Below are positions 26,682 through 61,300 of a stretch of 64,000 nt of DNA, piece by piece (position 1 is the stretch's first letter; each line of letters starts with the position of its first letter). The stretch covers positions 864,001 to 928,000 of the forward strand of contig CAWJPJ010000006.1 of assembly GCA_963844715.1 (NCBI GenBank), given 5' to 3'. A model generated the notes under the pieces. That model was given only the letters and a program-made list of their open reading frames with translations. It was not told the origin of the DNA and did not search any database. This stretch comes from an uncultured Phycisphaerales bacterium (lineage in GTDB: Bacteria > Planctomycetota > Phycisphaerae > Tepidisphaerales > Tepidisphaeraceae). A program made the translations under genes and the position numbers.

Positions 26682-26793
26682 CGGGAGGCGGCCGGGTCCG
26701 ATGCAAGGGTCGGCCGCGAACCGGGTCAGGTCCGAGAGGAAGCAGCCCTAAGTGGTCCCGGCTTTGTGCCGTCGTCCCCCCGGCCGCTTTCCG
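26682..26793 (+). ncRNA. ffs: Signal recognition particle RNA (small bacterial 4.5S type)
   Basis: Helix-8 motif CCGGGTCAGGTCC-GAGA-GGAAGCAGCCC in a long hairpin closed by GGAGGCGGCCGGG / CCCGGCCGCTTTCC, followed by a T-run. Confidence 0.92.
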
Positions 26794-56823: not shown

Positions 56824-57934
56824 ATGGATCATCTCGTTTCGCGCCGCCGCCGCCGTGGATGCCTCGGGCATCCGCAAGGTGTTCGATCTGGCCGCGAAAA
56901 TGTCCGACCCGATCAACCTTTCGATCGGGCAACCCGATTTCGACGTTCCTGAATTCGCCAAGGACGCCGCGATCGAGGCCATCCGCAAGGGGAACAATCG
57001 ATATACTCAAACTCAGGGAATCGCGCCGCTTCGCGAGCGCCTGCGCAAAGATCTCTCGGCGGAATTTTCCCACGACGTCGGAGAAGTGCTCATCACCAGC
57101 GGCGTCAGCGGCGGCTTGATGCTGGCTCTCCTGGCCACCATCGACCCGGGTGATGAGGCGATTTTCCTCGATCCTTACTTCGTCATGTACAAGCATCTGC
57201 TCACTCTGGCCGGGGGGAAGCCGGTGATCGTGGACAGCTATCCCGATTTTCGCTTTCCCGCGGAGCGCGTCGAAAAGGCGATCACCTCCAAAAGCAAGCT
57301 GTTGATCCTGAACAGCCCCAGCAATCCTACCGGCGTGGCAATGAATCAGCGCGAAATCGACGACGCTGTGCGCATCGCCAAAAAACATAATCTGCTGATC
57401 GTCTCCGATGAGATTTACGAGCCGTTTCTATACGACGCGCCGCGCGGCCTGCCGAGCGCCGGGCATTCGCATGAAAACACTTTGATTCTTCGCGGATTTT
57501 CCAAGAGCCACGGCATGACCGGATGGCGACTCGGCTATGCCGCCGGCCCGTCGGAGATCATTTCGCAGATGACCAAGCTTCAGCAGTACACATTCGTCTG
57601 TGCCCCGGCGCCGTTTCAATACGGAGCACTGAAGGCGTTGGACGTCCCGATGGAGGACGCCGTGGCCGCGTATCGCCAGAAGCGCGATTTGGTCTGCCAT
57701 CGGCTGCATCGGAAATTCGAACTGGTCGTCCCCGAGGGGGCGTTCTACGTCTTTCCGAAGGCCCCGGCCGGGATGACCGGGAGCCAGTTCGTAGCCAAGG
57801 CGATCGATAACAACGTCCTGATCATTCCGGGGAACGTCTTTTCGGAGCGTGATACCCATTTCCGAATCAGCTACGCGACGACGATGGAGAAGTTGGAGGC
57901 GGGCTGCGAAATTCTTTGCAAGCTGGCCGGGTGA
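56824..57934 (+). CDS. Class I/II PLP-dependent aminotransferase
   Basis: LSIGQPDF, NSPSNPTG, SDEIY, GFSKSHGMTGWRLGY, FRISYA; small frameshift near the start. Confidence 0.92.
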
Positions 57935-57982
57935 TCTCGCGGGTGCTCAGAACTGTCAGATTCCGCGATCAATCGGATGGAT

Positions 57983-58012
57983 TTGAAAATCCGTCCGCCA
58001 GCGCGTTAGTAT
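57983..58012 (+). promoter_or_regulatory. Putative sigma-70 promoter for the tRNA-like gene
   Basis: TTGAAA (57983-57988), 18 bp spacer, TAGTAT (58007-58012); the -35 lies inside an inverted repeat at 57974-57997. Confidence 0.5.
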
Positions 58013-58093
58013 GGCGTCGTGCGGGTCGAATCTACTTGTGAATAGTCCTGCTGACGCCAACCGGCAACGATCGCTCTTCGGGGCGAGGCGGCT

Positions 58094-58178
58094 CCGGCAG
58101 TGGCGGAACTGGCAGACGCTCTGGATTGTCAATCCAGTGATCCACAAGATCGTACGGGTTCGAATCCCGTCTCCCGGA
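58094..58178 (+). tRNA. Non-canonical tRNA: Leu-type class II body with GUC (Asp) anticodon
   Basis: Acceptor CCGGCAG/CTCCCGG (one C:C mismatch), A73; D arm GCGGAACTGGCAGACGC; anticodon arm CTGGA-TTGTCAA-TCCAG; long variable arm TGATCCACAAGATCGT; T arm ACGGG-TTCGAAT-CCCGT; no encoded CCA; followed by T6. Confidence 0.82.
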
Positions 58179-58224
58179 GCTTTTTTCGTTTGACTTATGC
58201 CAAATCCGCGTCGATAACATTGTT

Positions 58225-58278
58225 ATCTTGTGGATCACTGGATTGCAGCCCCAGATTGACACCTGGGGCTAATTTATT
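58225..58278 (+). ncRNA. Putative small antisense RNA to the upstream tRNA
   Basis: 58225-58245 is the exact reverse complement of 58130-58150. Hairpin AGCCCCAG-ATTGACAC-CTGGGGCT has a loop complementary to the anticodon loop. Candidate -35 TTGACT at 58190-58195. Confidence 0.55.
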
Positions 58279-58311
58279 GGTCACGCCTGCCCTCCGCCGT
58301 CCCCATCAAGC

Positions 58312-61300
58312 TTACTTGTCATCCCCATCGCTCAGCACTCGATCCACGGTCGTCGTAATCGTATTGAAGCTCGTCGCCGAAACTTTCGGCTGCTGAATCG
58401 TTCCGCTGACGTGGATTCTGAGCAGTTCCTGCTTGGCCCCGTAGATCAGCGGCCCGAGGACGGGAAGGCTGACCAGCGTGGGGTTATCCGTCACAAACCA
58501 GAGGCTCACTCGCTTGGCCGCGAAATCGAGCTGGCCGTTGCCGTTCATCGTCATGTCCTTGCTCTTGAGGATGATTTGATCGAAGACGACCTGTTGGCCG
58601 TCGATGGCGTAGCGCGTGGTGGCCTCGGCGAAGGGGCTGCTGAGGGGAAGGGAGAGATTGGTGATCTGGAGCAGGCCTAGGAGGATGGGGAGGTTGTACA
58701 TATTTTCGCCGGTGACGCGGACGTCGCCGTGGCCGCGGCGGCTGGTGGGATCGCCGAGGGTGCCGTCGAGATTGAGCGAGGCGGTCAGCTTGCCGCTGAC
58801 GCCCTGGTTCTCCGGGGCGGCAAGTTGCGCGACATCGGCGTCGCGAAGAACCAGGCCGAAGTCGTACCGGCCGGGCGAGGTGTCCTGATCGTTGTCGGAG
58901 TAGCTGAATTGCCCGCTCCCACTGAGATCGCCGCCGGCGAAATCGCCGCCGAAGCGCGAGATCTCGATGACCGGATCATCCGCCGGTTTGGCGATCATCG
59001 CCGAGAAATTTTGCGCAGGGCGTCCGGCCAGAAGGAGATTGTCGGCGGATAGCTGCATGCCAAGCCGGTGCAGCTTTCCGTCGCGCACCAATCCCGCGAC
59101 ATCCATCGCGCCCGTGGCGCCCGCGATGGGGAGGCCGATGTCCAGATTCGCGCCTAGAAGGCTGACCTTGGCGGCAAAGTCGATGTCCGGGCCGTGCCGC
59201 GTCCGCCGAGCCCGGACGGTAAGCCAACCGTGAGAAGTCCAAGCCGACCGAGCCGGTGAGTTTCAACGTCTTAATAATGTCGGATACCGTTTCAGGTACG
59301 GCGGCGATGGCGTCCGCGTCGAGCGGAACAGGGTCCGCGGTCAATTTCAATACCCATTCCGGATGCTCGCCGAGATCTCCTTCGCCCGTGACGGCAAGCG
59401 CCGATTTGCCGTGATGCGCGGTGATTTGCTTGAGCAACACTTTGGTCGGGGAGACGCTTAAAAGCCCATGCACGTCGTCCATCCGATATGGAAAAATCTG
59501 CGGCTTCACCGAAAGCTGAACGGGGTGAATCTGCAAATCGAGCTTTTCATCCGGGTCGGGTGCGCCGCTGAGCGCGGAGGCATATTCAACAGTCGCGTTT
59601 ATGCTTCCCTGCGGCTGGATCTCGTCCCACGCCTGTTTGGCCGGATCGGGCAACGCGGCGTACAGTGCCGGTTCCAGGGGAACATTTTCCGCGATGGCGG
59701 AAAGCATGATCCGCGGAGGCCGGGCCGACGGTTCGCCTGGCGCGGGAGCGCTCCATGCGATGGAGAGATGTCCCGCGATGTCCCCGGTGCCGCGTTTGGC
59801 GGTCATGTCCGTCAGCACGAAACTCGTCGGGGTGATTCGCATCTGGGCGCTGATCCCGGAAAGCGCGTAGGCATTTCCCAACGGCCAGAGAGCGCCATTG
59901 TGCAAATGGGCGTTGAACAGAAAATCGACGTTGGGATTGGGCGAGTTGTCCTGCACTTTGGAGGGCGTCACATTGCCTTCCACCTCGATCAACCCGGTCG
60001 CTCCCACGGCGACGAGCCAATCGCGCTCGGCGGCGGGCAGAGCGCCTTTTAATTCGTCATCGAGCGGAAGATTTCTGGCAACGACGTGCAAATTCGGCCC
60101 CACCGGCTGGGTCGTCGCCGGTCCGTGATTGGATTTCCAGGTGATCCGGCCATTGATATCGACCGACGCGGTGCCGCGGCGCATGGCGATATTCTTCAGA
60201 TCGACAAAGCGATCGTGAACTTCCAAACGGCCCGTCACGTGACTCATGGGATAAGGGAAGAAGACAAGCGTACCGGCGGCATCCTTGAGATCGACGTCAG
60301 TCGTGAAGTCGAAACGCCGGTGCTGGCCAGGCTGACGCTCGATATGGCAAACGACGTCCGCGCGGAATTGCGGGAGCGCCGCCGGTGCCGTCGGGATCGA
60401 AAAGGCGCAGCGCCCGGTCAACCTGAGGGGGCATTGCCGTGCGCAGAGCCGGCTCGCTGGCGATGTCCTTGGCGCTGACGTCCAGCCATATTCCGGCCAC
60501 TTGATCGAGGGGGCCAATGAATCCGTTGATGGTAACAGTCGAATTCGCGTTGGGGCCGTCTTTCAACCCGTAACCGGTGACGCCGAGCACGCGGATTCCG
60601 TCCATTTTCGTAAGTGGATCGTGCCCGATGAGGATTTCGCCCGTCGCGTCGCAGAGCGGATAGGGAAAGTCGGCGAATTTGAATTGCCCGTCGTGGATAT
60701 CGATCGCGCCGACCACCGCCGGGCGCGCGCCGGCTTCGCCGCGATTGAGCGTGACCGACACGCTGCACGTCCCCTGCGGATGCAGGCGCTCGTAAATCTC
60801 CTGAACCTCCGGCGGCAAAGACCCGGCGTAGGTGGGCGACCAGGCGGGGATTTCCAAATCGTGCCCCGGCATGGACGAGACCGTCAGCTTCGCCGCGGCG
60901 TCGGGGGAATAGCCGTGGATGATGCCGTCGAGATCGAACCAGTTGTTTTCAAGGCGGCCGTTGATGCCGTTGAGGGTCAGATCATCCTGAGTGAACACGA
61001 GCGTCCCGGAAACCTGCCGGAGATGCACCGGTTGCGGTGTGCTCAGGCGGCGCAGGGAATCGATGACATCCTGCGTGATCCATTGTCCGGGCTGGAGAGA
61101 GTCCAACAACGCGTGGAATTTCCGCACGTTTTCATTTTGCCGGCGGCTCATCCATTCCTCGGGGCTGACGGCCAGTTCGACGCTGCTGAGAGAAATTTCC
61201 ATGCGGAAGGAGGGTTGCTCGCCGGGCTTGCCGGGCGTGAAATACATTTCCGGCACGTCGATGCGTCCCTGGAGCTGGTGGCGTTCGCACCATTCTCGCG

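Follow-up and report, generated by a model that had tools for sequence, protein, structure and literature searches.

A leucine-type tRNA with a GUC anticodon and its putative antisense RNA partner in an uncultured Phycisphaerales bacterium

The locus and its tRNA

The window analysed here, i.e. the whole stretch of 64,000 nucleotides at positions 864,001 to 928,000 of contig CAWJPJ010000006.1 from an uncultured Phycisphaerales bacterium, contains a small cassette in which a class II tRNA gene of leucine type with a GUC anticodon is followed by an element complementary to the anticodon loop, anticodon stem and variable arm of that same tRNA. The complementarity co-varies across many loci, and the cassette is accessory. 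The only tRNA that ARAGORN calls in the 64-kb window spans 58093-58180 of the plus strand and has the anticodon gtc, and Rfam places positions 58094-58178 in the tRNA family RF00005 with 51 bits, the gathering score being 29. The features of the cassette are as follows.

57983..58012, plus strand: promoter-like site for the tRNA (TTGAAA, 18 nt, TAGTAT), from a consensus scan and collinear with TTGTCA...TATAAT of the related metagenome locus L204
58013..58093, plus strand: 5' leader of the tRNA, which contains a CTTGTGA motif and, immediately upstream of the tRNA, a UUCG hairpin (58072-58085), from the sequence and alignment with L204
58094..58178, plus strand: class II Leu-type tRNA with anticodon GUC, from ARAGORN, Rfam and a 29-member family alignment
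58126-58132, plus strand: anticodon loop TTGTCAA, with the anticodon GTC at 58128-58130; discriminator A73 at 58178
58181..58186, plus strand: run of six T right behind the extended acceptor helix, likely the end of the tRNA transcript; a T run is kept in L204, L050, L060 and L072
58190..58218, plus strand: putative promoter-like site for the partner RNA, TTGACT (58190-95), 17 nt, GATAAC (58213-18)
58225..58245, plus strand: antisense stretch of 21 nt, 100% complementary to 58130-58150 of the tRNA, seen as an inverted repeat
58247..58279, plus strand: terminator-like hairpin AGCCCCAG-ATTGACAC-CTGGGGCT with tail AATTTATT, from a hairpin scan

The tRNA consists of a 7 bp acceptor stem (CCGGCAG/CTCCCGG) with a single C5:C68 mismatch, the D arm TGGCGGAACTGGCAGACGC, an anticodon stem CTGGA/TCCAG, a variable region of 16 nt with GATCGT at its end, and a T arm ACGGG-TTCGAAT-CCCGT; CCA is not encoded. 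Three added pairs (GCT/AGC) extend the acceptor helix and yield an inverted repeat of 58091-58100 with 58171-58180 that matches at 9 of 10 positions; this extension is absent from L204. Since the acceptor stems of L204 and L167 both read CCGGCAG/CTGCCGG, the C5:C68 mismatch is a derived single change. Mismatch and extension alike had been described in the original prediction, a reading of the sequence alone that proposed a leucine-type tRNA body carrying an aspartate anticodon.

The promoter-like site upstream of the tRNA is the only such match in a consensus scan of 57700-58600, and the leader can be aligned to that of L204, including GTGCGGG...CTTGTGA and a GGCGAGG block. The CTTGTGA motif in the leader (58040-58050) complements the CACAAG loop of the variable arm and is kept in L204; it may act in cis as a duplicate of the antisense element, or may be due to chance. 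T-rich sequence directly 3' of the tRNA occurs at 18 of 90 family loci.

It had also been claimed that the anticodon is not a sequencing error. Contigs from three public runs of one study cover the tRNA with 0 differences, which is weak support because their depth is low and they possibly derive from the source sample; the occurrence of the same type of tRNA elsewhere is much stronger support.

Identity elements and likely charging

The genome that contains the window (G000) is a 4.55-Mb assembly of 8 contigs that is 85% complete. Among 73 other ARAGORN-called tRNA genes in it, the best matches to the window tRNA are Leu genes, the top three with 73-75% identity. Identity to the five ordinary tRNA-Leu genes, whose D arms hardly differ from that of the window tRNA, is 66-75%; it is 60% to a class I Leu(cag) in a tRNA array, 61% to tRNA-Asp, and 65-66% to the two tRNA-Tyr copies, whose D arms are unlike. 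A separate canonical class I tRNA-Asp(gtc), for which a check had been proposed, is present at C6:611182-611256.

According to the available part of PMC9976931, leucine identity in E. coli resides in A73, A15-U48, G18G19 and A20a, with the anticodon and the variable arm irrelevant; this agrees with the earlier statement that LeuRS of the E. coli type is independent of the anticodon. The whole set is present in the window tRNA, and A73, A15/U48, A20a and the Leu-type D arm had all been read correctly; the anticodon GTC lies outside the Leu anticodon pattern (NAG or YAA). The same part of that source gives Asp identity as G73, G34, U35, C36 and C38 plus G1-C72 and G2-C71, of which the window tRNA has the anticodon only. 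It has instead A73 and A38, so that the Asp hallmarks G73 and C38 are absent as predicted, together with C1-G72, C2-G71 and a long variable arm. For Tyr the determinants given there are A73 and U35, in bacteria with G1-C72, and the Tyr anticodon is GUA; A73 and U35 are present, and C1-G72 and C36 do not fit. Because the full Leu set is found, the Asp set is limited to the anticodon and the bacterial Tyr first pair is lacking, and because E. coli-type LeuRS ignores the anticodon, the window tRNA is most likely charged with Leu, and would hence insert Leu at the Asp codons GAC and GAU.

The antisense partner in the window

The antisense stretch begins 44 nt past the tRNA's 3' end as called by ARAGORN (58180), or 46 nt past A73. 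Its complement in the tRNA comprises C36, A37 and A38, then the 3' half of the anticodon stem, and the greater part of the variable arm; the stretch has no second occurrence in the genome. When 58060-58290 is folded as one transcript, the minimum free energy structure contains the 21-bp duplex (z = -3.87 against shuffles). The hairpin proper lies at 58247-70 with the loop ATTGACAC at 58255-62, and TTGACA within this loop (58256-61) is complementary to tRNA positions 33-38. The original prediction had used this GAC-bearing downstream loop as an argument that the anticodon is genuine. The hairpin is indeed there; it is more than a consistency check, since it appears to form the terminator loop of an antisense partner.

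The putative partner RNA would be ~55 nt long, starting at ~58225 from the promoter-like site at 58190-58218. This site is not listed by the consensus promoter scan because the final base of its -10 box is C; the same layout is found in L204 (TTGACT/GATATT) and, as TTGACA-17-GATAAT, in L048, L050 and L060. A search of Rfam with the partner gave no match to a known RNA family, the sole extra match scoring 16.5 bits with E = 0.64. A small open reading frame (ORF) of 14 codons that runs through the hairpin with an in-frame GAC was dropped, as it is not conserved in L050 by eye.

A widespread tRNA family

Related tRNAs were sought with a pattern that required both a Leu-type D arm and YTGTCR in the anticodon loop, and that matched 79 loci in bacterial and archaeal contigs, one genome per species, and 2 viral loci. 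Of the former, 32 are called as class II tRNA(gtc) by ARAGORN, as are both of the latter, and among the remaining genome loci a few more are tRNA-like by eye and the others are chance matches in coding sequence. The metagenome figures here and below are lower bounds and refer to the matches listed: at least 120 loci were matched, of which 66 of the 120 listed are well-formed copies by a stem-pairing test, with A73 in 60 of these 66. The pattern scans thus total at least about 100 such tRNAs in several phyla, the hosts named in record titles including Planctomycetota, Alphaproteobacteria, Solirubrobacterales, Gemmatimonadota, Acidobacteriota, Myxococcota, Saccharimonas and others. For a pair of these genome contig records the sequence is identical to that of a locus from a genome assigned to the phylum of the window (L035 = L106 and L036 = L074).

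Alignment of 29 members gives a 7/5 cloverleaf, as had been claimed for the window tRNA in place of an 8/4 or 9/3 arrangement. Of its 24 pairs, 20 show compensatory changes, and every one of the 29 has A73. U33 is kept, A is found at position 37 in 28 of the 29, and G1-C72 in 20; the invariance of the D arm and anticodon is uninformative because the search pattern fixes both. Acceptor stems are broken in members L068, L095 and L118. Among the matches listed, the nearest relative of the window tRNA is the metagenome locus L204 (87% identity), a GUC tRNA from another source being 81% identical and the host Leu tRNAs at most 75%. Three Solirubrobacterales loci (L080, L096 and L121) have C1-G72 like the window tRNA, no clear partner, and an apparent tRNA start after the gene; these may represent a different context, a tRNA cluster. 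A loose 21-base pattern run on 400 genomes of the phylum matched mostly by chance, with a number of matches near that of the reversed-pattern control and 2 tRNAs only.

The original prediction is thus confirmed as an observation and supported in part as an interpretation; it overlooked the widespread family, and also TyrRS as a candidate charging enzyme.

Recurrence and co-variation of the partner

Antisense sequences were sought with the part of the tRNA that begins at position 32 and ends with the variable arm. At 14 of 41 non-redundant loci it has an exact complement of 10 nt or more located 40-65 nt downstream, versus none of 18 ordinary tRNA-Leu loci, where the maximum was 9 nt. With the variable arm alone, complements of at least 10 nt occur in 12 of 39 cognate versus 5 of 1560 non-cognate pairings. 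In our own locus-by-locus count of the metagenome set, the best match, where it reached 9 nt or more, was downstream at 26 or more loci and upstream at 3 or more. The overall count was made on 90 unique loci with at least 150 nt of downstream sequence. Of these, 27 have an antisense stretch of 10 nt or more and 36 an anti-anticodon hairpin, i.e. one whose loop complements positions 33-37; 45 have one or the other, 40-100 nt downstream, and a T-run stands behind 16 of the 36 hairpins.

The partner loops follow the anticodon loops beyond the shared core: TTGTCAT faces its exact reverse complement ATGACAA in L204, CTGTCAC likewise GTGACAG in L167, and CTGTCAT faces ATGACAG in L050. In 26 hairpins the base flanking TGACA complements position 38 in 18 cases, position 32 in 16 and both in 13. 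The window cassette aligns with L204 over ~330 nt that include the -10 box, the leader, the tRNA, the T-run, TTGACT, GATAAC/GATATT, the antisense stretch and the hairpin, with compensatory changes in the hairpin stem and no similarity past the hairpin.

The partner lies on the same strand as the tRNA at 35 loci and on the opposite strand at 10. At two of the latter, L035 and L036, the variable arm recurs on the plus strand as a direct repeat, together with a hairpin loop that is the same as the anticodon, and the T-run is on the opposite strand, so that the order in the predicted transcript is anti-variable-arm, spacer, anti-anticodon hairpin and U-run. Because this RNA layout is kept in both DNA orientations, an interaction between RNAs is favoured over a DNA site.

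Sister cassettes with other anticodons

A wider pattern, which kept the Leu-type D arm and allowed any base but A at position 35, was applied to 401 genomes, i.e. 400 of the phylum plus G000. It matched 7 of these, 6 with a real tRNA; the tRNAs are three with GUC, one with CUC (L256), two with CGC (L257 and L262) and one with CUA (L261), and two other matches are chance, with no T arm. L256 (genome G375) and L257 and L262 (both in G390) belong to one genus and are near-identical tRNAs that differ in the anticodon loop. Downstream of each lie two motifs that complement the anticodon loop of the same tRNA together with one strand of the stem: TTGAGAA twice in L256, TTGCGAG twice in L262, and CCGACTTGCGAA and GTGCGAAGACGG in L257. 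The first motif of each may double as the -35 box of the partner (TTGNGA, 18 nt, TAnGCT). The codons matched are Glu GAG for CUC and Ala GCG for CGC, and GAC, GAG and GCG, all G+C-rich, are expected to be common in these genomes. The CGC tRNAs are not Ala tRNAs because they are without G3:U70, and the bodies of the family are therefore unmatched to their anticodons. The class II CUA tRNA L261 (genome G241) is a possible amber suppressor, and no antisense partner was detected for it. As judged from these cassettes, the family is a Leu-type tRNA with a non-Leu anticodon plus a putative anti-anticodon partner.

The cassette as an insertion

57935..58311, no strand: intergenic insertion that contains the entire cassette (~300 bp), from comparison with G001 and G002

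The cassette is flanked by an aminotransferase gene (56855-57934, plus strand, assigned by Pfam) and a convergent ORF (58312-59106, minus strand). In G001, of the same genus, the two flanking genes are ~33 nt apart without a tRNA, the gap (L127 2570-2605) holding a short tandem repeat of CTAGCAA type; in G002 it is filled by another insert of 1.28 kb, which is unrelated and carries a small ORF (L128 222-1500). Since the contents of this convergent-gene gap differ between G001 and G002, it is an insertion hot spot.

When the locus was compared by BLAST with 60 genomes from its genus, family and class, ordinary tRNA-Leu genes alone were returned, and the singleton status that this suggested was overturned by the pattern scans. 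A repeat element was rejected, as the genome has no further copy of the cassette, as was an invertible switch or att site, since inverting the segment between the 21-nt arms yields no second tRNA and no recombinase lies nearby. No protein family is common to the cassette flanks among 55 ORFs of 17 loci, which gives no hint of a protein partner; examples are QueE/QueD, MotA, ThyA, FTCD, a class I synthetase fragment, DUF3800, HSDR_N, WYL and PD-(D/E)XK. In a Phycisphaerae genome, radical-SAM and PTPS-family proteins, possibly QueE and QueD of queuosine synthesis, are encoded directly upstream of a tRNA(GUC) cassette (L048:202-1346). GUC tRNAs are queuosine targets; the neighbourhood is a single case and is treated as a coincidence.

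About 25 kb past the end of the window (C6:952626-956065) there is a dense array of ~24 tRNA genes that looks like one of phage or island type. Among its genes are a second tRNA-Asp(gtc), one for a tRNA of 74 nt that has the Leu anticodon cag yet lacks a long variable arm, and one whose anticodon loop is unusual and which carries the ARAGORN label '???'. The window also encodes an ordinary bacterial small SRP RNA (26690-26788, plus strand, 63.7 bits).

Proposed mechanism and alternatives

We tentatively favour, at a probability of roughly 0.45, a reading in which a Leu-charged missense tRNA is restrained by the antisense RNA, the two forming an RNA-RNA pair that resembles a toxin-antitoxin system. 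Both RNAs would be transcribed, the tRNA would be leucylated, would decode and would be toxic, and the antisense RNA would be the restraining member of the pair. The loop of the partner's terminator hairpin would first kiss the anticodon loop, after which its 5' tail would zip up with the 3' half of the anticodon stem and with the variable arm, with the outcome that the anticodon is masked, the tRNA unfolded, or the tRNA exposed to a double-strand RNase. The stable tRNA would be the harmful part and the short antisense RNA the antidote of an addiction or abortive-infection module. A partner directed at the anticodon loop is also easiest to understand if the anticodon is used, as there would be little reason to mask an unused one. 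It is conceivable, if doubtful, that the cassettes are selfish or defensive RNA-only modules of a new class, in which a fully functional Leu tRNA, switched in its anticodon to an abundant GC-rich sense codon (GAC, GAG or GCG), poisons the entire proteome and the anti-anticodon antidote co-evolves with it, such that loss of the short-lived antidote, by cassette loss or by a phage that shuts off transcription, would unleash mistranslation.

A number of points weigh against the toxin-antitoxin-like reading. By the criteria used, 45 of the 90 loci are without a partner, and the hairpin and co-variation counts are somewhat inflated because the best of several candidates per locus was taken. Some complements are of 9-10 nt or imperfect, the variable-arm match of L204 having a mismatch and a gap, and the evidence from anticodon variation consists of three cassettes in two genomes of one genus. 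The window copy, with its C5:C68 mismatch, a weaker -10 box (GATAAC) and a weaker terminator tail than its relatives, may be a decaying copy; a search of public RNA runs for the cassette stretch found none. A folded tRNA resists strand invasion, and the zippering step is speculative. Moreover bacterial AspRS leans heavily on G34/U35/C36, and TyrRS on A73 and U35 (available part of PMC9976931), and the window tRNA could carry Asp or Tyr instead.

The structural evidence is identical for a host stress response in which useful mistranslation, Leu at Asp codons, is switched on and off by the antisense RNA, and many cassettes do lie amid housekeeping genes; programmed mistranslation by a dedicated tRNAPro family is described for bacteria in the available part of PMC10404621. 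Such regulation is nevertheless unlikely. The cassette is patchy and insertion-like (it is absent in G001, and 7 of 401 genomes match the wider pattern), the window tRNA is nearer to outside GUC tRNAs (87% and 81%) than to host Leu tRNAs, and the anticodon varies among sister cassettes; because of this patchy spread, the outside relatives and the changing anticodon, a mobile or selfish element fits better than a host regulon. Equally unlikely is a non-decoding riboregulator, i.e. a tRNA-shaped RNA that binds the neighbouring transcript and controls its termination or stability, for which the tRNA-like CI immunity RNA of satellite phage P4 and the binding of tRNA to T-box leaders are models. 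The complementarity always targets a site in or beside a terminator hairpin, and at L035 an ORF lies past the tRNA and the opposite-strand partner, presumably phage- or plasmid-like by its first residues though with no Pfam match; irregular tRNAs that are charged yet unused in translation are on record as well (Mukai et al., available part of PMC5389517). However, the window has nothing downstream on the plus strand, where the next gene is convergent, and the partner has a strong hairpin of its own. The full set of tRNA tertiary elements, A73 and acceptor co-variation are kept, all superfluous for a mere antisense RNA. The anticodon loop also retains U33, and A37 in 28 of the 29 aligned members.

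Charging by AspRS or TyrRS, which would make the tRNA a spare Asp decoder or a Tyr-at-Asp misreader, has a rather small chance of being correct. The anticodon holds the strongest bacterial Asp determinants and Tyr rests on A73 and U35 (PMC9976931, same part), and G1-C72 is common in the aligned family; but A73, A38 and C1-G72/C2-G71 in the window tRNA depart from the Asp set, C1-G72 departs from the bacterial Tyr set, the D arm is of Leu type, and identity to the genome's own tRNA-Tyr copies is 65-66%. It is more improbable still that the locus is a relic at the DNA level, an inverted repeat (att site, operator or palindrome) left by recombination or duplication beside a decaying tRNA pseudogene. 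tRNA genes are common integration sites, and the acceptor mismatch and weak signals of the window copy and the broken acceptor stems of L068, L095 and L118 suit such decay. Yet neither an integrase nor another common protein lies nearby; the repeats are inverted at 35 loci and direct at 10 while always specifying a complementary transcript with its own terminator; and a 21 of 21 match is unlike the product of neutral decay. Co-variation spans unrelated variable arms and different anticodons, which argues for selection on pairing.

Least probable is a reversal of roles, in which the small RNA sponges tRNA-Asp via its UUGACA loop and the Leu-type tRNA(GUC) is a decoy. RNA toxins that sequester tRNAs exist (CreT), the partner loop can form five Watson-Crick pairs and one G-U with the tRNA-Asp loop CTGTCGA, and the additional 21-nt match favours a decoy. 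A 6-nt loop-loop contact is, however, unlikely to titrate an abundant tRNA, and toxin-antitoxin logic assigns the toxin role to the stable RNA, tRNAs being stable. The partners of the CUC and CGC cassettes appear to be tuned to the Leu-type tRNA and not to host tRNA-Glu or tRNA-Ala, because their two anti-anticodon sites include its stem sequence.

Relation to known systems

The window tRNA resembles bacterial tRNA-Leu in its D arm, A14/A15, G18G19, A20a, U48, long variable arm, A73 and 7/5 stems. It differs in its GUC anticodon, which is without the A35 common to Leu anticodons, in C1-G72, in being orthologous to no host Leu gene and in having a predicted antisense RNA. The allo-tRNAs are likewise class II with a mismatched anticodon, GUC being among the three predominant anticodons, and are patchy in soil bacteria, near toxin-antitoxin genes or transposons, some of them toxic in E. 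coli; they are of 8/4 or 9/3 type and mostly of Ser identity, unlike the 7/5, Leu-type window tRNA (all from the available part of PMC5389517). The word "antisense" is absent from that paper and from the review PMC7609411, a word search of the 2024 review of mistranslating tRNAs PMC11415595 shows no tRNA with an antisense partner, and full-text literature searches of a limited collection of papers yielded no report in which a tRNA is paired with a cognate antisense RNA.

The cassette shares with type VIII and type I toxin-antitoxin systems two adjacent small genes with specific complementarity in an accessory inserted module, although its transcription is predicted from promoter-like and terminator-like sites. 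Antisense antidotes in such systems are short RNAs that end in a terminator hairpin and pair with their target through a single-stranded tail, and classical plasmid antisense RNAs use loop-loop kissing for first contact and then duplex extension. The predicted partner is similar to kissing-loop control in that its loop faces a 7-nt U-turn loop, with 6-7 nt on offer for the initial loop-loop contact, and its tail the neighbouring helix; it is unlike toxin-antitoxin systems in that its target would be a tRNA and not an mRNA or a small toxic RNA. Because it would combine a stable tRNA with a short antisense RNA and is accessory, insertion-like and protein-free, an RNA-RNA toxin-antitoxin pair is the closest working analogy. 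The mistranslating tRNAPro family of Streptomyces and relatives reportedly has a class I Pro-type body and a dedicated synthetase, unlike the window tRNA, and we know of no antisense partner for it. The likeness is in the natural mismatch of anticodon and identity (available part of PMC10404621).

Natural tRNAs with mismatched body and anticodon are rare, and the cassette adds a conserved antisense component that tracks even an anticodon change. Natural orthogonal tRNA/anti-tRNA pairs are also potential switches for engineered sense-codon reassignment. A mismatched tRNA thereby becomes a testable two-part system, with a handle on whether such tRNAs decode, and if the toxin reading is true, this would be the first example of an RNA-only toxin-antitoxin pair whose toxic member is a tRNA.

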